Of a DNA stretch of 28,457 bases, positions 19,174-28,457 are shown piece after piece (the stretch's first letter is position 1; every line of letters begins with the position of its first letter). The stretch lies in IMG/VR virus record IMGVR_UViG_3300037524_001174, positions 1 through 28,457 of that record. One strand, written 5' to 3'. A model generated the notes under the pieces. The model did not search any database, was not told the origin of the DNA, and worked only from the letters and a program-made list of their open reading frames with translations. Made by a program: the position numbers and the translations under genes. Source of the DNA: a virus. Its lineage: Duplodnaviria; Caudoviricetes.

Positions 19174-19196
19174 ACAGGAGAGGGGGTGCCCCTAGT

Positions 19197-19433
19197 CTAC
19201 GCCTGCTCGAACCAGATGTACACCCTCCCGTCCATGCTGCGAGAGCGCTGCTTCACCCCTCGCTCGGCCATGAGCGAGCGCTGCACGACCGTGAAGTTCG
19301 GACGCTGCGAGAAGGAGAGCATGGCCCCCTCCATCAGCCGGTCGAACCAGAGCGCCTTCGTGGCGTCCTTCACTCGCTGCACCTCCGCAGCGTCAGTGAT
19401 GACCTCGAAGTCCGTGATGGGCTGACCCTTCAT
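19197..19433 (-). CDS. Hypothetical protein (78 aa), first gene of the leftward operon
   Basis: GAAGGGAG RBS 6 nt upstream of the ATG; lies just downstream of the predicted promoter. Confidence 0.7.
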   Translation of the reverse strand: MKGQPITDFEVITDAAEVQRVKDATKALWFDRLMEGAMLSFSQRPNFTVVQRSLMAERGVKQRSRSMDGRVYIWFEQA

Positions 19434-19474
19434 GTCTGTCTCCCTTCGGTCGCTCTATGGGTGGCGGTAGAAGA

Positions 19475-19503
19475 AGTATACATCACGACTATAGGAGTGT
19501 CTA
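19475..19503 (-). promoter_or_regulatory. Sigma70-like promoter for the structural operon
   Basis: On the minus strand: TAGACA (19503-19498), N17, TATACT (19480-19475), about 40 nt upstream of ATG 19433. Confidence 0.65.
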
Positions 19504-19771
19504 CCCCTATAGTGTATGGACTCCCCTATAGGGGAGTCCTATATATGACTCCTATATATAGGAGCCCCGATAGGGGCTCCATCAGAGAGCCCCGGTAGGG
19601 GCTCTCTGTAAGGGTGGGGGGAAAGAAACTACTACTCCTATGACTGACACTCCTCCTATAGGAGCCCCTATCGGGGCTCCATGAGTGTGGGGGATATAGA
19701 CCACCTCCTATAGGAGCCCCTACGGGGCTCCATACATAGACTCCATGATAGATGTCCTCCTATAGGAGGAC
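19488..19771. repeat. Array of CTATAG-centred palindromes and GAGCCCC-N3/4-GGGGCTC hairpins
   Basis: GGACTCCCCTATAGGGGAGTCC 19518-19539; CTCCTATATATAGGAG 19549-19564; CTCCTATAGGAG at 19653 and 19705; GTCCTCCTATAGGAGGAC 19754-19771; hairpins at 19561-19580, 19583-19608, 19661-19680 and 19713-19731. Confidence 0.9.
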
Positions 19772-19998
19772 TATATATGGGTGGGGCTATGTATCAGAGA
19801 TGGGCTGCATCCCCCCAAGGGGGGGACGGCTCGGAGAGCCGGGGGGGTGGGACCCGGTACCCGTTGGAATGTGAGTGCATTGCCCGCACTCATGGGTGCA
19901 CACCGTGCACCCTCTCTCATTGCTCTCACGTGGAGGGATGGGTGGTTGTCGGACAGTCCGTCACCCATATCCCCTACCCATAGCCTGCACCTATAGGT

Positions 19999-20067
19999 CC
20001 CACCCATCTATAGCCTCCACCCATCTATATGCTCCCCACCCCTATATGCGTCCCACACCTATATGCC
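19999..20067 (+). repeat. Four imperfect ~17-nt tandem direct repeats (CCAC...CTATA(T)GC)
   Basis: cccacccatctatagcct / ccacccatctatatgctc / cccacccctatatgcgt / cccacacctatatgcc. Confidence 0.75.
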
Positions 20068-20196
20068 AGTGACATACACCCTCTCGGCGGTGAGCCCCTG
20101 CTCCCCATACCCCCGGGGAGTATCGGCCCACGGTGGGCGCATCCCCCTGCCCCGTGGGCCCATCCGGGCCCTGCCCGTGGGGCCATCCCCCTCGAC

Positions 20197-20281
20197 TACG
20201 TAGCCCCCTGAGCGTGGGCCTACGTAGGTACGTAGTCCACGTTACGTACCCCTCTACGTACTCCCCGTGCTCAACTACGTA
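20197..20281. repeat. Cluster of six TACGTA palindromes
   Basis: TACGTA starts at 20197, 20221, 20229, 20243, 20255 and 20276, plus CACGTA at 20295. Confidence 0.85.
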
Positions 20282-20311
20282 TTGCCATAGCCCCCACGTA
20301 GGCTCTAAGGT
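20282..20311 (+). promoter_or_regulatory. Sigma70-like promoter for the rightward (early-type) transcript
   Basis: TTGCCA (20282-20287), N18, TAAGGT (20306-20311). Predicted start site near 20318. Confidence 0.45.
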
Positions 20312-20313
20312 CC

Positions 20314-20754
20314 CCTCATCGCCGCCACGCACTGAGCGGCTCGCACGCAGGAGCAACCGAACACCGACCGCAACGCGACGGGAGCGCCGCTACCAGTCCC
20401 CTCGGGGGCCGGGCACGAAGGGCGAGTAAGCAGGGGGGTCGCCCCTGCGAACGGGAGCCGGGGTCGGGACGATTGCAGCACCGCCATCACGCAGACAGGA
20501 CCGGACCGCGAGGCACTCAGCCCCGTGGGCGCTACTAGCACCGTCCCGCGCTACGGCAGCGGGAGTGCCGCCCACGTTGGAGCATCTGACTGCAGCGTCA
20601 CGCTGCCGCCCCCGATGAGGGGCGGGGCGGATGCGCTCAGATGCGGTGCTGCCGCAGGTTGACGGTCCACCCGGCACCCTCTCAGCAGGTGCTGCCGATG
20701 TGCTTCATCCCGGCCACCCATCCCGTCGCACCCGAGCCCAGATGAGGCAGGGAC
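20314..20754 (+). ncRNA. Candidate ~440-nt highly structured non-coding RNA, family unknown
   Basis: No credible ORF. Nested long-range helices: 20314-20/20741-47, 20338-43/20733-38, 20375-83/20721-29, 20407-13/20709-15, 20457-62/20670-75, 20475-84/20643-52. Internal arms: 20430-48, 20524-76, 20582-644. Confidence 0.45.
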
Positions 20755-20802
20755 GACGGTCCCGGTGAGCCGGTGCACGGCGGGCATGGGCCCGCGCCCC
20801 AT

Positions 20803-20886
20803 GGGGGTCGTGAGCGACGGTCGCTCAGGTGGCTGTAAACCACCCGCCTTCGGGCAGCAGGGGTTCGACACCCTTGGCCCCCACCA
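20803..20886 (+). tRNA. tRNA-Tyr (GTA), class II with long variable arm and encoded CCA
   Basis: Acceptor GGGGGTC/GGCCCCC + A73 + CCA; D stem GAGC/GCTC; anticodon arm GGTGG-CTGTAAA-CCACC (GTA at 20835-20837); variable arm GCC-TTCG-GGC; T arm AGGGG-TTCGACA-CCCTT. Confidence 0.88.
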
Positions 20887-21090
20887 CCTCGTACCCTCCC
20901 GGCGGTCCACGCTACGGGCGTGGCCTGTATCAGCCGGGCAGGGCGGCATCCGCACCATGTCGAATGTCTCACGGTGCCTCGTCGGTGGCCCAGATGGTGG
21001 CCGACATGAGGGGTGGCAGCGACGGCCGAGAGGCACGCTAGCCACCCCGCCTCATCTCCCCCACGCCTAGCACCCAGAAAGGACCCACCG

Positions 21091-21360
21091 ATGTTCGCGT
21101 CCACCGACCTGTCCGCCCTCCGCGCCTCCACCGACCTGAAGGCCCAGCAGGACGCTCGCCTGCGCCTGTTCGACCTGTCGCTCACCCTCACCTGCCGCGC
21201 CGAGCGCGCCGCCCGTGGCGGTGACAAGGCGCAGGCCGCCGCCCTGTTCCGCGAGGCGGACTTCACCCTCTCGTGCCTGCCGCTGGGCGCCGCCGAGCGC
21301 ACGGCGGGGACGGGGTTCCTGCTCGACACCATGCGCCTCGTGAGCCCTGAGGGGCGCTGA
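21091..21360 (+). CDS. Hypothetical protein (89 aa, MFASTDLSAL...)
   Basis: GAAAGGA RBS at 21077; strong GC3 codon bias. Confidence 0.75.
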   Translation: MFASTDLSALRASTDLKAQQDARLRLFDLSLTLTCRAERAARGGDKAQAAALFREADFTLSCLPLGAAERTAGTGFLLDTMRLVSPEGR

Positions 21361-21441
21361 GGCACCCGGCCGAAGATACCCGCGCTGGCCACGCGGTGGC
21401 GCCCCAGCACGCTTAGAGGGGGCTCACTTGCACGAGGTGCA

Positions 21442-21506
21442 CCATGCCGAAAGGCCGCACGGGGTGCGGCCTCCACCGGGCGCCATCCCGGTGCTGATGA
21501 GGCTGG
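21442..21506 (+). ncRNA. Hammerhead ribozyme, type II topology; predicted cleavage 3' of C21473
   Basis: CCA-T-GCC | GAAA (21449-52) | stem III GGCCGCAC-ggg-GTGCGGCC | TC | stem I CACCGGG-cgccat-CCCGGTG | CTGATGA (21494-500) | GGC-TGG. All core nucleotides and three stems are present; intergenic. Confidence 0.9.
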
Positions 21507-21526
21507 CAACGAAAGGGCCCACGAAC

Positions 21527-21781
21527 ATGTCTCGCATCCTTGCCCTGCTCCGGGTCCGCCGCTGGGCCCCGGACGCCACGCTCATCGCAGTCTCGGAGCC
21601 TGATAAGCACGGGTTCTGCACCGTGCTGGCGCAGGGCACGCTCACCAAGAGCGTCCCCGTGCGGCGTGCATTCATCGTCCTCAGCGTCCACGTGGGGGGC
21701 TCCACGTGCCGGTTCATGTCGTGGACCAACGAACAGGATGCCCGGTCGGACTTCGACCGCCGCTGCGCGTGGGGGGTCTGA
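21527..21781 (+). CDS. Hypothetical protein (84 aa, MSRILALLRV...)
   Basis: GAAAGGG RBS at 21511; directly downstream of the hammerhead. Confidence 0.65.
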   Translation: MSRILALLRVRRWAPDATLIAVSEPDKHGFCTVLAQGTLTKSVPVRRAFIVLSVHVGGSTCRFMSWTNEQDARSDFDRRCAWGV

Positions 21782-21863
21782 GGACTCCCACACCCCGCGT
21801 GCCACACACCTGACACGCCCATCTGCCACAATCCACCCACGTAGCCCTGAAAGGACCCATCCG

Positions 21864-23279
21864 ATGGCGAAACTCGCACTCCCGAGGCTGCTCGACCGCC
21901 CGTCCGAGGTGGTCGATGAGCGCACCCGGTCATCCGTCGGGCTGGCCGGTGACATGGTCGTGGACGTCTTCTCCCCGGCCAACCTCGTCACCCCGGCGGC
22001 CACGTTCGTCGTGACACCGACCGACGTTTCGGTGGCCGTGGGGGTGCTCACCGACTCGTTCGTGGCCCCCCGCATCAACCGCCTGCTGGACGGTGTGGCG
22101 GGCGCCCCGCGCATCGAGAAGTACCACCGCACGGGTCGCATGGTGGCCCGTTTCCGGGGCCATCCGCGCCCGCTGCCGGTGTCATTCACGCTCCCGCTGG
22201 TGCCCATGGGTGCCCCCGGTTCGATGGGCGTTGCCCCCACCATCGTGCAGGCTGTCGCCCCGGCCCCCGTGCCTCCGGCCCCTGCTCCGGCCCCTGCTCC
22301 CGAGGCTCCGGCCCCGATGGTGCTCCAGCCGGAAAGCCCCCACGTCGCGCTGAAGGTCGCACCGGCCGCAGTCGATGCGCAGACGTGCGGGTGCCCGGCC
22401 GGTGGGTGCCTCTTCACGTACCCGGACCGCTCACGCGCCGGGCGCATCATCACCTCAGCCCTGACGAAGGCGGCCCTGAAGGCGGCCCTCGCCAAGCACC
22501 GCTCCGGCGAGCGCTCCACGGTGGCGCTCGTTGGCCCGAAGGGCACGGGCAAGACCGAGTTGGTGTGGGACCTTGCCGCTGCCGAGGGCATGGGCCTGTT
22601 CGTCTTCGACGGTGCTGGTGCATCGTCATTCGCAGACTGGACGGGCGCCACGGCGCTCGTCACCGAGGGCGGGCAGACGGTGACCCGCTACATCCCCTCG
22701 TCATTCATCGAGGCCATCCGCGTGGACGGCCCGCACGGTGACGAGAAGCGCCTCGTCCTCGTGGACGAGTTGAACCGTGCCGAGTTGGCCGGTGCGTTGA
22801 ATGCCCTCATGCCCATCCTCTCGGCCGGGAGCCTGTACATCCCCGAGACGGGCAGGACGGTGGTCGTGAGCCGCAACGTCATGTTCCTCTTCACGCTCAA
22901 CCGGGGCTCCGCCTACAACGCCACCATCACGCTGGACGCGGCGCTCAGCGACCGCATCGAGACGTGGGTGCGCACCGAGTACCTCCCCGAGCAGGACGAG
23001 ACGAACCTCGTCTGCGCCCGCACCGGGCTGGCCCCCGAGCAGGCCGCCCGCCTCGTGCGCGTCGGCCGCCATATCCGCGACGTGGCCGAGCGTGGCGAGA
23101 TTGACGATGGCGTCTCCACCCGCCGCATCCTCGTGGCGGGCAGCATGGTGTCGCAGGGCATGAGCCTGCGCGATGCCGCTGAGGTGTGCTGGGCCAACAT
23201 CTACCCGGACGAGGGTGGGAGCGAAGGCCAGCGCGGGCTCGTCATCACGGCCATCAACGCCGCCCTCAGCGCTTCCTGA
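21864..23279 (+). CDS. MoxR/CobS/CbbQ-like AAA+ ATPase with an N-terminal extension and Pro/Ala linker
   Basis: GAAAGGA RBS at 21849. Walker A GPKGTGKT, Walker B LVLVDELNRA, TLNRGSAYNATITLDAALSDR (Arg finger), sensor II STRR. Confidence 0.88.
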   Translation: MAKLALPRLLDRPSEVVDERTRSSVGLAGDMVVDVFSPANLVTPAATFVVTPTDVSVAVGVLTDSFVAPRINRLLDGVAGAPRIEKYHRTGRMVARFRGHPRPLPVSFTLPLVPMGAPGSMGVAPTIVQAVAPAPVPPAPAPAPAPEAPAPMVLQPESPHVALKVAPAAVDAQTCGCPAGGCLFTYPDRSRAGRIITSALTKAALKAALAKHRSGERSTVALVGPKGTGKTELVWDLAAAEGMGLFVFDGAGASSFADWTGATALVTEGGQTVTRYIPSSFIEAIRVDGPHGDEKRLVLVDELNRAELAGALNALMPILSAGSLYIPETGRTVVVSRNVMFLFTLNRGSAYNATITLDAALSDRIETWVRTEYLPEQDETNLVCARTGLAPEQAARLVRVGRHIRDVAERGEIDDGVSTRRILVAGSMVSQGMSLRDAAEVCWANIYPDEGGSEGQRGLVITAINAALSAS

Positions 23280-23323
23280 GGGCGGCACACTCCCACACGA
23301 CACCCCAGAAAGGACCGACACCC

Positions 23324-24949
23324 ATGGCCGCTCTCATCGTCCCACCCCCGGCTCCGCCGGATGACCCCATCCCATGGTTCACCGAGCGCCTGCGGCGTGC
23401 GGGCGGGTTCGCCCCCATCGGCGCAGACGGCTCCCGCGTGCGGCGCGACGGTGACTCCATCGCTGCCGTCCTGACCGTTCTCACGCAGGCCGTGGCGGCC
23501 CTCCACGATGATGACCACCCGTACCGTGTGGTCTTCAACAAGGCGTCCGCGAGCGCGGGCACCGACCTCGAAGGCAAGATGGTCGAGGTGGGCTCCAAGC
23601 CCCTGAGCGACCCGGCGCTCACCGACGGCCAGATGGCCGCCGTCATGGCCGGGCTCGTACTGCACGAGGTCGGCCATATCTGCTACAGCCGCCAGTACAC
23701 GGGCAGCGTCAACCGCGCCTTCGGCGGGGCCGAGAACGTGACGGGCGCCATCCGCACGCTCAGCAACCTCGCGGCCGACTGCCACGACGAGGCAGCGGCC
23801 ATGGCACTGTTCCCCGGGCTGGCCCCCGCCATCGCGGTGACCCTCTGGTGGGTGAGCGGCAAGGGCGAGGCTGAGCGGCGCCTCTGCAGCGAAGCGCTGC
23901 AGCGCAGCGCGGTGGACCGCGTCAACCTCGCCATCGCTGCCACGAGGTACCCGTGGCAAGTCGAATGGGACACGGTCGAGGCACTCGAATGGCTCGACTG
24001 GTGGACCGACTGGGCGCGCCGGGCACACGATGCCGGGGAGCCCAAGGAACACGCCGCCATGGTCGTGGAGGCTATCGCCAAGGTGCGGGCATTCGTCCCG
24101 CGCAAAGAGCCCTCTCAGACACCCATCCCCGACGAGCCCGAGGGCGCCCCTGAAGAGGACGCCGACGAGGGCGAGGACGAGGGCGATGGTTCGTCGGGCG
24201 AGAGTGAAGACGCCGAGGATGAGGACGCCCCCGAGGGCGACGAGCCCGGCGACGGTGACTCCGACGAGGACGAGGGCGAAGGCGAGGACGCCGAGGGCGA
24301 GCCTCAGGACGAGGGTGAGCCCGAAGGGTCCGACGAGGGCCCCGATGGCGACGAGCCCGAGGACGATGGCGACGAGTCCGACGGGTCGGACGAGCCCGCC
24401 GACGCACCGGGCGGCAAGGACGAGGACGAGGACGGGGAGGACGCCGATGGCGGCAGCGAACCCGTGCAGTCCCGTGACATGTCCGACGGTGACGAGGACG
24501 AGGGCGAGGGCGAGGGCGAAGACGGCGCGGACGGGCAGCCCGGTGGCGCCGAGGACCGCTCCGACGATGAGCCTGAAGACCCCACCGACGAGGATGAAGA
24601 CCCCACGCACACGAGCGGCGGCGGGGTCACCGAGCACACCGACAAGGGCTCCCTCGCGTCGGACATGTCCGACTGGGAGCAGTCCAACGCCCTCCGCGAG
24701 GAGAACACCTACCAGCGCGGGATGCAGGACCCCTGCGCTGCCGACGCGGCCAAGGCCATGTACACCGACCAGCGGCTGCAGATGCAGGCCGAGGCGGCCC
24801 TGAAGGGCACCCGCGAGGGGGCCCGCGCCCGGGTCTACAACCACGCGGCGTCGCGCTACTTCGAGTCCTACACGCATGGCGGCAAGCGCGGCCATGTCGT
24901 GAGGATGGTCCCACGGGTGAAGGGGAACCAGTGGGGGTTCGACCTGTAG
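23324..24949 (+). CDS. HExxH metallopeptidase-like protein with a long Asp/Glu-rich tract (CobT N-terminal / vWA-associated peptidase-like)
   Basis: GAAAGGA RBS at 23308. GLVLHEVGHICYS...LSNLAADCHDE, then an acidic low-complexity region at about 24130-24610. Confidence 0.75.
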   Translation: MAALIVPPPAPPDDPIPWFTERLRRAGGFAPIGADGSRVRRDGDSIAAVLTVLTQAVAALHDDDHPYRVVFNKASASAGTDLEGKMVEVGSKPLSDPALTDGQMAAVMAGLVLHEVGHICYSRQYTGSVNRAFGGAENVTGAIRTLSNLAADCHDEAAAMALFPGLAPAIAVTLWWVSGKGEAERRLCSEALQRSAVDRVNLAIAATRYPWQVEWDTVEALEWLDWWTDWARRAHDAGEPKEHAAMVVEAIAKVRAFVPRKEPSQTPIPDEPEGAPEEDADEGEDEGDGSSGESEDAEDEDAPEGDEPGDGDSDEDEGEGEDAEGEPQDEGEPEGSDEGPDGDEPEDDGDESDGSDEPADAPGGKDEDEDGEDADGGSEPVQSRDMSDGDEDEGEGEGEDGADGQPGGAEDRSDDEPEDPTDEDEDPTHTSGGGVTEHTDKGSLASDMSDWEQSNALREENTYQRGMQDPCAADAAKAMYTDQRLQMQAEAALKGTREGARARVYNHAASRYFESYTHGGKRGHVVRMVPRVKGNQWGFDL

Positions 24950-25000
24950 GTCGGCCCCCACGCCTCTCCCACACCCCCACGCGAACGAAAGGGCACCCCG

Positions 25001-25744
25001 ATGACAGACAGACTCCCGGTCACCACCCGCAGCAACGCCTCAGCGTCCGCCGCGCTCGCGGCGGCCATCGTCTCGTCACGGCGCGGCCCGTCGGCTCCCA
25101 AGCGCGAACAGCGCACCGGGCGCGTGGACCGTCGCCGCCTCGCCCGTGTGGCGGTGGCCGACCCCCGGGTCTTCACCCGCCGTGGGGCCCCGGCTCCCGA
25201 CAAGGTCCGGGTCACCATCCTCGTGGACGCCTCCGGGTCCATGTCGTGGGTCAACAACGTCCACGAAGCGCTGGGCCGGGTCGCGGTGCAGGTGTGCCGG
25301 GAGTTGGCGGACGCCACCGACATGCTGCCGTGGGTCCATGCGGACGTGGTCGCCTTCTCGACCATGGGCATGGATTGCGTCCTGTACCCGCTCTGGGAGA
25401 CGGGCCAGCCGACGAAGAACGTGGACCTGTACGGAGAGGTCACTCTCGGCGGGACCGAGGAAGGCTACGCGCTGGCGTACACCTACGACGCCCTGAAGGA
25501 ACGCATCAGGGACCGTGAGCAGGGGCTCATCATCATCATCAGCGACGGCGGCCCCAGTGAGCCGCTCCACGTCGCCAGTGTCGTGCGCATGTGCCGCGAG
25601 GGCGGCATCCCGGTGGTGAGCGTGGCTCTCACCGAGAGCGCCCAGCAGCCCAAGATGTACGGGCTGGAGAACGTCATCGTGTACGACGGCAACAGCCGGG
25701 CTCTGGCCCGGGGAATGGCCAAGGTCATCGGCCGGGTCCTCTAG
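25001..25744 (+). CDS. von Willebrand factor A (vWA) domain protein
   Basis: TGRVDRRRLAR (CobT-like), MIDAS motif ILVDASGSM, GGT, IIIISDGGP. Has its own RBS at 24987. Confidence 0.88.
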   Translation: MTDRLPVTTRSNASASAALAAAIVSSRRGPSAPKREQRTGRVDRRRLARVAVADPRVFTRRGAPAPDKVRVTILVDASGSMSWVNNVHEALGRVAVQVCRELADATDMLPWVHADVVAFSTMGMDCVLYPLWETGQPTKNVDLYGEVTLGGTEEGYALAYTYDALKERIRDREQGLIIIISDGGPSEPLHVASVVRMCREGGIPVVSVALTESAQQPKMYGLENVIVYDGNSRALARGMAKVIGRVL

Positions 25745-25783
25745 GGCCCGGCCCCATCCCTCTCAGTGAAAGGACGCACCGTC

Positions 25784-26074
25784 ATGGCATTCCACGTTCG
25801 CACCACCGAGCACGCCGGGCCGAAGCATCGGTACGGCGGTCACTGGGGCCCCAAGGCCGAGGCGAAGCACGAGTCCTCCCGGGTGCGTCGGCGCATCGGG
25901 GACCGGGCGGCCATCGCTGAGGGCATGGCCGAGGTCATCGAGTGCCGGTCCCTCCCCGACGTCGGGTGGGAGGATGCCGAGGGCTCGTACGAGGATTGGC
26001 TGCGCTGGGAGGGCATCTGCCCGTGCGACTGCCACCTGAGCGACGGCGGCGGCCAAGTGTGCTGGGAGTGCTGA
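25784..26074 (+). CDS. Hypothetical protein (96 aa) with a C-terminal CxCxCH...CxxC motif
   Basis: GAAAGGA RBS at 25768. Confidence 0.65.
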   Translation: MAFHVRTTEHAGPKHRYGGHWGPKAEAKHESSRVRRRIGDRAAIAEGMAEVIECRSLPDVGWEDAEGSYEDWLRWEGICPCDCHLSDGGGQVCWEC

Positions 26075-26130
26075 CTCCCACACGACCCATCCCGAAGACC
26101 CGACAGGCACTCACGAAAGGACACACACCC

Positions 26131-26349
26131 ATGAACCTCAGCGAATGCACCCACCCCACCAGCAGGGGCCCCACCGAGGGCATGCTGGAAGACGGCGACT
26201 TCCGGCGCGTCTGCCTCACCTGCAAGCGTGCCTTCGACCCGGAGCCCGACCCTGAGGCCCCGGACATCCCGTTCCCGGGCTCCGACGGCACGTGCGACTG
26301 CGCGGCCTGCGTCGAGAGCGGGCTCCCCATGCTCAGCCCGGGAAGGTGA
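26131..26349 (+). CDS. Small Cys-rich hypothetical protein (72 aa)
   Basis: GAAAGGA RBS at 26115; motifs CTH...CLTC...CDCAAC. Confidence 0.7.
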   Translation: MNLSECTHPTSRGPTEGMLEDGDFRRVCLTCKRAFDPEPDPEAPDIPFPGSDGTCDCAACVESGLPMLSPGR

Positions 26350-26435
26350 GCATGGCCAACTGCATGTGGTGCGGGGCGAACCAGTACAGCGTCCCGCACG
26401 CCTGTACCTCTCACACCTCACGAAAGGAGACACCT

Positions 26436-26774
26436 ATGGCCACCCCGTGCGAGCATCGCAACGTTCGTCTCACCGACACCGAGGAAGGCTACGAGTGCAT
26501 GGCTTGTGGCCGCATCCTTGGGCACCTCTTCGGGAGGCATGACGTCTACCCGATGGGGGTCCGCGAACTCGACCACCCCCGGACGGGTGGGACCTTCACC
26601 ATGCGGGATGGGCGCGAGTACGTCGTGGTCACCCCGTCACTCATCCTGCAGGGCGTGTGGAACAGCCATCGCAGCACGTCCCGGCACCTGTACTTCCACG
26701 TGGGCATCGGGCACTTCATCGTGCTGGAGTCGGACCTTCTCGACATCGCTGAGAAGGGAGGCGGCCCGAGGTGA
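26436..26774 (+). CDS. Hypothetical protein (112 aa) with an N-terminal CxH...CxxC Zn-ribbon
   Basis: GAAAGGAG RBS at 26422. Confidence 0.7.
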   Translation: MATPCEHRNVRLTDTEEGYECMACGRILGHLFGRHDVYPMGVRELDHPRTGGTFTMRDGREYVVVTPSLILQGVWNSHRSTSRHLYFHVGIGHFIVLESDLLDIAEKGGGPR

Positions 26775-27061
26775 CGCGCCCGTCCAACGCACCTCCCCTG
26801 AACCCGGCACTCCCGTGCCGGGAATGGGACGGGGAACTCGACCGTGACGGCTATGGCCGGTGGGGAAACGGGTCTGCTGGGAGCCAGCAGGCCCACCGCC
26901 GGGTGTGGGAGGAAGACGTAGGGGATATCCCAGAGGGCATGACCCTCGACCACCTTTGCCGCAACCGTGCGTGCATCAGGCTGGAGCACCTCGACCTCGT
27001 CACGATGTCCGAGAACAGCAAGCGACGGTGGGCGCATTCGCGCAGGAGCATCATCGCTTGA
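26771..27061 (+). CDS. HNH endonuclease (free-standing, homing-endonuclease-like)
   Basis: CREWDG...DGYG...AHRRVWE...IPEGMTLDHLCRNRACIRLEHLDLVTMSEN. GTGA overlap with the upstream stop. Confidence 0.88.
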   Translation: MTRPSNAPPLNPALPCREWDGELDRDGYGRWGNGSAGSQQAHRRVWEEDVGDIPEGMTLDHLCRNRACIRLEHLDLVTMSENSKRRWAHSRRSIIA

Positions 27062-27117
27062 CCCCATCATTGGCATGAGGTAGTCTTACCTCGTCTACTC
27101 CACGAAAGGAAGGAGCC

Positions 27118-27393
27118 ATGCGTATCCTCGTCACGTCCCCGTGCTACGTCGAGTCCGACGGGCCGGTCCTCATCGAACCGCTGAAGGGCGAGGAGCCTCA
27201 CGCCCCAGAGGCGTACGCCACCGACCCCCAGCCCCTCATGCGCGCCTACCGGACACCACGCCCCACGACCGCCCTGACGTGCCGCAAGTGCGGAGTCAGG
27301 TTCGTCGGCCGTCGCAACCAGAAGTACTGCTCCCCCACCTGCAAGCAGCAGTACTACCGTGAACTGAAGATTGGGTGGAGCCCAGATGCTTGA
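27118..27393 (+). CDS. Hypothetical protein with a CxxC...YCSxxC zinc finger
   Basis: GAAAGGAAGGAG RBS at 27104; CRKCGVRF...KYCSPTCK. Confidence 0.7.
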   Translation: MRILVTSPCYVESDGPVLIEPLKGEEPHAPEAYATDPQPLMRAYRTPRPTTALTCRKCGVRFVGRRNQKYCSPTCKQQYYRELKIGWSPDA

Positions 27394-27574
27394 GGACGCC
27401 CTGCGCTTCGCGCTGACACTCATCATCGGCATCCCCCTTCTCTCGTTCGTCGTCACCCTCACGCTCACGGCCGCCATCGCAGCGGCGTGGGTGCTGGGGT
27501 CCATGGTCATGTACGTCGTGGGCATCCCGCTGGCCATCGCCTACCGGGTGAAGACCGGAGAGTGGCCCCGGTGA
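27386..27574 (+). CDS. Small membrane protein (62 aa)
   Basis: Long hydrophobic stretch; overlaps the neighbouring genes at both ends. Confidence 0.65.
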   Translation: MLEDALRFALTLIIGIPLLSFVVTLTLTAAIAAAWVLGSMVMYVVGIPLAIAYRVKTGEWPR

Positions 27575-28140
27575 CCGACATCGGCTCCGGGGCCCCTCTG
27601 GCCCCGCAGTGGGACAACCCGGCCTACTTCGACGACGTCACCGAGGACGTCATCGAGGAACAGGCCAAGCAGCAGGGCATGGCCGAGTCCGCAGGCGCCT
27701 CTGCCGCATGGCAGAAGGTCGCACGGGACTGGTTCGCCTCACTCCCCGTGGGGATGAGCATCACCGCAGATGACCTCACGGACGCCATCGGGGTGCCCAC
27801 CAGTCAGGGGGCGGTCGGCGCAGCCTTCGCCGCAGCCGCTTCCCGTGGCCTCATCGCCCCGGTGGGCATGGCCAAGTCACGTCGGGAGGGCCGTCACAAC
27901 TCACGCACCCTTGCGTGGGAGAAGGCCGTTCCGCCTACCGTCACAGAGCCGGTCGGACGTACCGTGTGGGCCGAATGCACTGGTTGCCACAAGGCCTCCC
28001 CGCTCGACACCCTCTCCTCCAAGTACGGCAAGCCGCAACTGGTGGGCGAGGTGAAGGGGAAGCGCCTCTGGGAAGCCAAGTGCCACGTCTGCAAGCCGTC
28101 CAAGGCCTCTCGGCTGGAAGCCATCTGGAAGGAACGCTGA
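27571..28140 (+). CDS. Putative winged-helix DNA-binding protein with a C-terminal Zn-ribbon
   Basis: GTG start coupled to the upstream stop. ITADDL...GAVGAAF...RGLI...SRREGRH...W pattern is common in phage wHTH proteins; CTGC...CHVC follows. Confidence 0.55.
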   Translation: MTDIGSGAPLAPQWDNPAYFDDVTEDVIEEQAKQQGMAESAGASAAWQKVARDWFASLPVGMSITADDLTDAIGVPTSQGAVGAAFAAAASRGLIAPVGMAKSRREGRHNSRTLAWEKAVPPTVTEPVGRTVWAECTGCHKASPLDTLSSKYGKPQLVGEVKGKRLWEAKCHVCKPSKASRLEAIWKER

Positions 28141-28141
28141 C

Positions 28142-28457
28142 ATGAACGCCGCCCGTGGTGCCATCGCCTACCTCGTCATCGAGCCGGGCGGTGCCATCAA
28201 GCAGACATTCGCCCCACTGGATACCCCCACGGTGCAGGGCATCGTGGGGGGGTCCTTCGAGACGCTCCACCCGAGGGGCATCGAGGCCACCGTCTTCCTT
28301 GCGGAGGACGGGAAGCAGCGTGGGTTCAACCCCAACTGGGTCGCCACTTCCCTGCTCCGGTCACGCCTCCGCCCCGAGGACTTCGTCGTGGGGACGGTGG
28401 TCGTGGCCGGATTGCCGGATGCCGAAGGGGATATCCAGAGCATCACCGTGAAGTCCG
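28142..28457 (+). CDS. DUF3846-family protein, partial
   Basis: Manual translation: MNAARGAIAYLVIEPGG...VQGIVGGSFETL...VFLAEDGK...PNWVATSLL...DFVVGTVVVAG...DAEGD. Confidence 0.75.
   Translation, partial: MNAARGAIAYLVIEPGGAIKQTFAPLDTPTVQGIVGGSFETLHPRGIEATVFLAEDGKQRGFNPNWVATSLLRSRLRPEDFVVGTVVVAGLPDAEGDIQSITVKS

Follow-up and report, generated by a model that had tools for sequence, protein, structure and literature searches.

The question raised by this locus is whether the RNA elements found at the head of a phage early operon, i.e., a long leader, a tRNA, a hairpin, a small open reading frame (ORF) and a self-cleaving ribozyme, form one integrated RNA-processing cassette or are separate parts that happen to share a predicted transcript. 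An earlier note on this DNA favoured the cassette and proposed that tRNA maturation and ribozyme cleavage cut the transcript into defined, functional pieces. The stretch analysed, here called the window, is a virus record of 28,457 bases. Its left side carries terminase, portal and major head genes on the - strand and its right side carries the AAA ATPase, acidic-linker protein, vWA protein and small genes on the + strand. About 800 bp of strongly palindromic non-coding DNA separates these divergent late and early operons, and the region with the RNA elements adjoins it as the head of the + strand operon (Table 1). DNA runs containing the window sequence are labelled wetland metagenome; three of them may be its source, and a fourth is nearly letter-identical. 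The terminase had no match among cultured phages. Its sole genome match is a contig in a Myxococcales bin, with 45% terminase identity, and Myxococcales was not accepted as the host.

Table 1. Features at the head of the + strand operon (window coordinates)
Feature	Position	Strand	Details
Predicted sigma-70-type promoter	20282..20311	+	-35 at 20282, 18-nt spacer, -10 at 20306; relaxed pattern match
Non-coding leader, partly folded	20318..20802	+	six frames negative; z -2.16; no Rfam family, no homologue
Best-supported folded core of the leader	20498..20668	+	hairpins 20524-20576 and 20582-20644 within an enclosing helix; pair probabilities 0.95-1.0
tRNA-Tyr(GUA), encoded CCA	20803..20886	+	ARAGORN
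Non-coding tRNA trailer	20887..21090	+	strong hairpin ~21000-21057, no U tract; GAAAGGA ribosome-binding site 21077-21083
89-aa orphan ORF, predicted small helical protein	21091..21360	+	codon score +0.30 per codon, GC3 0.94
Type II hammerhead (RF02276)	21445..21515	+	Rfam 38.4 bits vs cut-off 37; predicted cut between 21473 and 21474
84-aa ORF, first gene of the predicted 3' cleavage product	21527..21781	+	codon score +0.11, GC3 0.88; ribosome-binding site 21512-21516
Early operon: MoxR/CbbQ-type AAA ATPase 21864-23279, acidic-linker protein 23324-24949, vWA protein 25001-25744	21864..25744	+	Pfam AAA_5, CbbQ_C, VWA

The predicted transcript and its leader

Promoters were surveyed on the + strand of the window with a relaxed pattern (TTG-N3/16-18/TA-N3-T), which gave just two matches, at 20282 and 27058 (0.28 expected per 9 kb). 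Transcription from the former would start near 20318. The 20282 site was not among the calls of a stricter scan, by which it is weak; the same pattern is found before the leader of one relative (G005) and before the tRNA of another (G003). As the relaxed pattern gave no second promoter-like site on the + strand between 20312 and 27058, transcription of the operon behind it seems to rely on the site at 20282. The survey is thus compatible with the predicted single transcript from about 20318 that the earlier note had assumed. In one RNA run, exact contig pieces were found at 19190-19454 and 19901-20146, at a depth of 2-4 and left of the promoter, and no piece lay over 20208-21113; in a single shallow run such contig gaps cannot show absence.

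Several further sequence patterns surround this promoter and the operon behind it. Six TACGTA palindromes, found nowhere else in the window, lie just upstream of the -35 box (20197-20281) and are a possible operator array. Nested palindromic repeats at 19480-19910, whose folding z falls as low as -7.4 on either strand, likely mark an origin or genome-end region, and a block with a G-run, GGTACC and GTGCAC near 19845-19910 has a look-alike, recognized by eye, upstream of the G005 promoter. The second promoter-like site (27058-27087, + strand) precedes a 91-aa ORF. In the gaps of the early operon a 9-nt C/A-rich motif recurs on the + strand ahead of GAAAGG-type ribosome-binding sites, with exact copies at 21785, 23290, 24966 and 26075 and copies with one mismatch at 21056, 26408 and 20050. 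Four exact copies in 21000-26600 compare with 0.07 expected, a number reached in 0 of 500 simulations; one copy occurs in the G001 stretch and none in the stretches of G003, G004 and G005. The motif may be a start-associated, processing or protein-binding signal.

With a codon model trained on eight long genes every one of the six frames of 20318-21040 scored negative, and the leader and the tRNA trailer (20318-21090) are therefore taken as non-coding. The description of the leader as a 485-nt structured RNA holds only in part. When folding was scored in 120-nt windows it was significant only in about 20520-20680 (z of -3.3 and -4.4), whereas the leader as a whole reaches just -2.16, with three of 100 shuffles as good, and its first ~200 nt show no folding beyond chance (window z -0.5 to +2.2). 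A z of -2 in such windows is also passed by 10% of 59 coding windows, and the non-coding DNA at 19480-19840, upstream of the promoter, is more palindromic than the leader (z down to -7.4). Rfam reported no large non-coding RNA family (GOLLD, ROOL or other) at E<=5 across 19400-28457. No homologue of the leader was found in the fetched viral loci or in cultured phages.

A GOLLD-like RNA in which the inverted repeat 20312-20337/20988-21013 would close around the tRNA was considered and rejected: the fold of 20318-21520 lacks such a helix, the 5' arm partly precedes the predicted start and the 3' arm forms a hairpin of its own. Within the leader, the 8-nt segment 20475-20482 has two identical complementary partners (20645-20652 and 20688-20695), so that alternative folds are possible.

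The tRNA, the small ORFs and the hammerhead

The tRNA-Tyr proposed at 20803-20886 was called by ARAGORN at exactly this position, with an encoded CCA and as the only tRNA; neither ARAGORN nor Rfam called a tmRNA. Tyrosine identity resides in the anticodon, G1-C72, A73 and the long variable arm. All cloverleaf stems pair, and the GUA loop, G1-C72, A73, long variable arm and CCA are intact. The core is atypical in having G8, G14 and a D hairpin of 6-7 bp, departing from the canonical U8/A14/A21, and the Rfam tRNA model (RF00005) did not report the tRNA at the gathering cut-off or at E<=5. Position 8 deviates also in other phage tRNA-Tyr (L081, L082). The tRNA is 77% identical over 70 nt to a tRNA-Tyr in a phage tRNA cluster (L085) and matches annotated tRNA-Tyr of Streptomyces and Mycobacterium phages. 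An identical anticodon arm occurs in 12 viral loci, 11 of which have an ARAGORN tRNA-Tyr at the match (calls assigned by order and coordinates), mostly within tRNA clusters; for alignment (n=10) the second copies of a duplicate pair and the locus without a call were left out. As this arm is common to clustered phage tRNA-Tyr, the tRNA resembles a phage-type tRNA-Tyr more than a mere signal for cutting. In the precursor context the acceptor stem of the cloverleaf has a predicted probability of just 0.09-0.18 because both flanks compete for it; it is thus a minority fold, and cleavage of the precursor by RNase P is likely, not assured.

Behind the tRNA, a 'hairpin domain' had been described for 20887-21095. 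The hairpin at ~21000-21057 is indeed strong (window z -3.2, pair probability 0.97-0.99), whereas the region as a whole has a folding z of just -1.74, with 12 of 200 shuffles as good; a terminator scan gave no call in the trailer. The 89-aa ORF that follows has coding-like codon use, as had been claimed. Its protein matched only itself among 52 candidates, has no Pfam or PHROG family and gave Atlas matches below the naming bars. Before the 3' end of a tRNA is trimmed, an endonuclease normally cuts the precursor at some point downstream. The proposed ~590-nt mRNA for the 89-aa protein would thus not have its 5' end set by tRNA 3' trimming, as the earlier note had it. Nor would the 3' product of ribozyme cleavage begin with the AAA/vWA operon, its first gene being the 84-aa ORF, which has no Pfam or PHROG family either.

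The hammerhead, proposed to cut after 21473, is the sole element that Rfam called in the window, as a full match to the model. Its core and pseudoknot can be read from the sequence, and the core places the predicted cut at the proposed site. The core consists of CUGANGA and GAAA, with stems I and III closed and a 3-bp stem II open; the cleavage triplet is CUC rather than the common GUC. A 4-bp complement between loop I and the 3' tail after stem II would form a pseudoknot, as described for type II hammerheads (Perreault et al., 2011, PMC3088659). With the pseudoknot left uncounted, an active-like fold lies within 2-3 kcal/mol of the minimum and stem I has a probability of 0.97-0.99, but an inactive alternative, predicted in short contexts, wins in two of the three that were folded, stem III then having a probability of 0.03-0.07 versus 0.99. 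The closing codons of the 89-aa ORF and the stretch immediately preceding the hammerhead are predicted to base-pair (21332-21441); with this pairing stem III forms (0.99) and without it mostly not. It might be speculated from these folding models that translation of the 89-aa ORF tunes cleavage.

A Shine-Dalgarno sequence and a start codon follow the CUGA core at 27-37 nt in all eight hammerheads compared, one in the window, three in the relative G004 and four in Streptomyces phage Diane; for one Diane hammerhead the start codon chosen differs from the annotated start. The idea that tRNA and ribozyme act as punctuation is thereby supported as far as the hammerhead is concerned. It is likely that the transcript is cut both at the hammerhead and on either side of the tRNA.

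The same region in relatives

Whether the parts belong together can be judged from their occurrence in relatives. A scan with the terminase, of which 80 of 131 matches were kept, contributed 32 records to a survey of element order, and six distant ATPase matches brought the total to 38; ten of these are at least 90% complete and many are fragments. A hammerhead was found in two records and a tRNA in six, and no record has both. ARAGORN calls made in relatives at a low threshold proved to be noise and were left out. The closest relative, G001 (66% terminase identity among the 80 of 131 matches kept), lacks exactly this region; comparison was with the more distant G004 and G005, at 44-45% terminase identity. 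Close kin of the early region were not found in viral contigs, whether by the AAA protein, P0006 or a degenerate pattern, nor in genomes. An AAA alignment query returned distant ATPases only and a primase scan three already known records only; close homologues of the AAA protein do exist, with up to 81% identity.

G004 has homologues of all three AAA, acidic-linker and vWA genes in the same order. Before small ORFs ahead of these genes it carries two complete hammerheads and, at the contig start, the 3' portion of a third; its leader is missing from the assembly. Also ahead of its AAA gene (L137 ~1520-1560), a 5-bp hairpin with a T-loop-like 7-nt loop was seen by eye and is a possible tRNA-like processing signal. 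In G005 the promoter pattern is followed by a leader of ~750 nt and then by a hammerhead, with no tRNA or ORF between; this hammerhead is cut off by the contig end and scores 26 bits, below the cut-off. The G005 leader (L142 5596-6398) is non-coding in six frames, has a z of -3.3 and no Rfam family, and is a stronger candidate for an orphan RNA than the leader of the window. Homology between the two leaders was rejected, as their best local score was reached by 19 of 300 shuffles and their number of shared 8-mers by 21 of 300. A motif common to both leaders was searched for in 20 of 64 collection parts and gave 119 loci without a third member: 83 of the 119 lie under ORFs of at least 200 aa, the matches are due to chance, and the sole nhmmer match below E 0.1 is G005 itself. 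In G003 a canonical tRNA-Leu(CAA) comes directly after the promoter of a divergent operon and before its first ribosome-binding site (L156 1459-1610). Four terminase relatives of lower GC (L151-L154) each carry a single tRNA-Ile with a UAU anticodon.

The order of parts is thus not conserved where comparable, among distant kin. Co-occurrence of the same element order in relatives had been named as the check on the cassette; tRNA and hammerhead stand together in 0 of 38 records and G005 has neither the tRNA nor the ORF. Within the limits set by distant kin and many fragmentary records, the comparison thus lends no support to an integrated five-part cassette.

Interpretation and comparison with known systems

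We consider it rather probable that the region is the 5' end of a phage early transcript assembled from swappable RNA parts, in which a known form of ribozyme punctuation is joined by an orphan leader and a tRNA supplied early. The parts likely make up a patchwork and not a fixed new system. The operon heads indeed vary among relatives, with a tRNA-Leu in G003, a leader and a hammerhead in G005 and hammerheads in G004, which was counted in favour of this modular reading. Cutting of phage messages by ribozymes has been proposed before, and the tRNA on the same predicted transcript is the added feature.

From the observed elements, their order, their non-coding status and the hammerhead-to-start spacing in relatives we infer transcription, cleavage and processing, and the purposes that these may serve, as follows. 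The hammerhead would cut the transcript after 21473, and host enzymes would excise the tRNA-Tyr, likely for use as a tRNA, freeing the 485-nt leader as a by-product. After a type II cut the downstream RNA would begin with a 5'-OH and with stem I as its terminal hairpin, the start codon lying ~50 nt further on, and the downstream operon would thus receive a uniform, protected leader. In the manner of a natural RiboJ insulator, that operon would also be uncoupled from upstream processing by RNase P and other RNases. The upstream 89-aa message would keep its hairpin and a cyclic-phosphate 3' end. The early RNA of T7, which is cut by RNase III, has a comparable uniform hairpin-capped 5' end, and the stable RNAs of T4 are a further parallel. 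The position of the tRNA behind the first promoter would give an early, high supply of tRNA-Tyr, and in the five early genes for which tyrosine codons were counted TAC occurs 23 times and TAT not at all. By analogy, the supply would most plausibly serve against tRNA-Tyr-depleting defences or host shut-off.

Other readings of the same elements have to be weighed against this patchwork. The leader could belong to a new class of large phage RNA with a function of its own, the atypical tRNA being mainly the RNase P signal that defines its 3' end and interchangeable with a ribozyme. The first transcript would then be a large folded RNA that is freed by RNase P at tRNA-Tyr in the window and by the hammerhead in G005, with interchangeable 3'-end signals and swappable, unrelated RNA genes. 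This would account for a non-coding sequence that has been maintained over 770 nt and contains a well-defined folded core, for the odd core of the tRNA and for the leader of G005, which is of similar length, has a like promoter, is folded and ends directly in a hammerhead; large phage RNAs of the GOLLD and ROOL type also occur near tRNAs (Kretsch et al., bioRxiv 10.1101/2024.12.08.627333). It fits less well with a whole-leader z of just -2.2 and 200 nt at the 5' end that show no more folding than chance, with the lack of detectable likeness to the G005 leader and of a third member in the motif scan (20 of 64 collection parts), with the absence of an Rfam family, or with a leader left uncovered in the one RNA run. 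Moreover, the tRNA keeps a full anticodon arm as in clustered phage tRNA-Tyr, which is more than a cutting signal needs. We regard the new RNA class as unlikely, and the interchange of its 3'-end signals as equally doubtful.

It is more improbable still that the region consists of two units. In this reading the hairpin at 21000-21057, as an attenuator or a terminator lacking a U tract, would end all or part of the RNA that carries leader and tRNA, and the ORF and hammerhead would be expressed through read-through or from another start. Termination at hairpins without a U tract is possible in GC-rich bacteria, and the hairpin after the tRNA is strong by both pair probability (0.97-0.99) and window z (-3.2), but it received no terminator call and the relaxed pattern gives no promoter-like site in 20312-27058 from which the second unit could start. 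We give as little credence to a leader that acts as DNA, i.e., as a genome-end, first-entering or origin-adjacent spacer, with the tRNA a decaying passenger and the hammerhead alone functional. The leader does lie next to the strongly palindromic 800 bp of non-coding DNA that separate the divergent operons, and the tRNA deviates at core positions and is missed by the Rfam model. On the other hand the leader lies downstream of a promoter-like site, as in G005, and a tRNA in which all cloverleaf stems pair and the CCA and anticodon loop are intact, and whose deviation at position 8 is shared by other phage tRNA-Tyr (L081, L082), does not look like a tRNA in decay.

The 27-37 nt spacing from core to start in the window, G004 and Diane points to a possible role for these hammerheads, by which every message behind one of them would receive a uniform 5'-OH end capped by a hairpin. 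A review from 2019 still called it undefined what purpose self-cleaving ribozymes serve in bacteria and phages. The window adds an example of a tRNA sharing a predicted transcript with a hammerhead; should the leader prove stable and functional, it would in addition be a new large phage RNA. No paper on a leader, a tRNA and a hammerhead in one phage transcript was found in the literature searched, which covered few of the subscription journals.

Parts of the arrangement resemble known systems. Like the GOLLD and ROOL RNAs as described by Kretsch et al. (bioRxiv 10.1101/2024.12.08.627333), the window has a long non-coding phage RNA beside a tRNA; unlike them, its leader has no Rfam match or conserved homologues, folds modestly and is predicted to form no helix enclosing the tRNA. 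Theta ribozymes are HDV-like, adjacent to phage tRNAs and cut at the tRNA 3' end (as far as described in Kienbeck et al., 2024, PMC10879173). The window likewise has a self-cleaving ribozyme downstream of a phage tRNA, but this is a hammerhead whose cut lies 587 nt downstream of the tRNA with an ORF between, and it therefore cannot make the tRNA end.

For the tRNA itself the nearest parallels are in phage defence. According to the accounts consulted, T5 is rescued from retron-Eco7 by a phage tRNA-Tyr under a strong promoter and Septu is countered by T6 amplifying tRNA-Tyr (PMC11555353, PMC13096335). The tRNA-Tyr(GUA) of the window is similarly placed for likely strong expression, while it differs from the clustered counter-defence tRNAs of the E. 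coli phages in being alone and atypical. The suggested anti-defence role is an analogy with E. coli phages.

The hammerhead is comparable to RiboJ, an engineered ribozyme insulator (described in PMC8942793), in that its cut would give the downstream message a uniform hairpin-capped 5' end, and is unlike it in being natural and of type II geometry. Also comparable are the clustered type II hammerheads that flank phage and prophage genes and were proposed to cut polycistronic RNA into gene- or operon-length pieces, and HHphage, which in the early transcript of HF1/HF2 lies ahead of the first ORF (Perreault et al., 2011, PMC3088659). The hammerhead of the window, with its pseudoknot, also sits between small early genes; in contrast to the cases as described there, it is single and shares its predicted transcript with a tRNA and a long leader. 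A further comparison is provided by Streptomyces phage Diane (NC_054663.1). As in the window, type II hammerheads lie between its small genes, nine distinct ones in the right-end region (41361-50483); these counts are from Rfam, as a custom descriptor found two of the Diane sites and none in G004. The Diane hammerheads are unannotated, and in one case the annotation has a gene start that overlaps the ribozyme, likely an error of placement (L143, L280). The right end also has ~980 nt without annotated genes and with repeated promoter-like sites. Diane shows no similarity to the leader of the window, and no tRNA is annotated or found by Rfam in the stretches read. On the other hand one of its hammerheads is 79% identical to that of the window, and all four that were measured, of the nine, lie 31-35 nt before a start codon. 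With nine hammerheads, Diane is a culturable system in which the proposed role in 5'-end formation can be examined.
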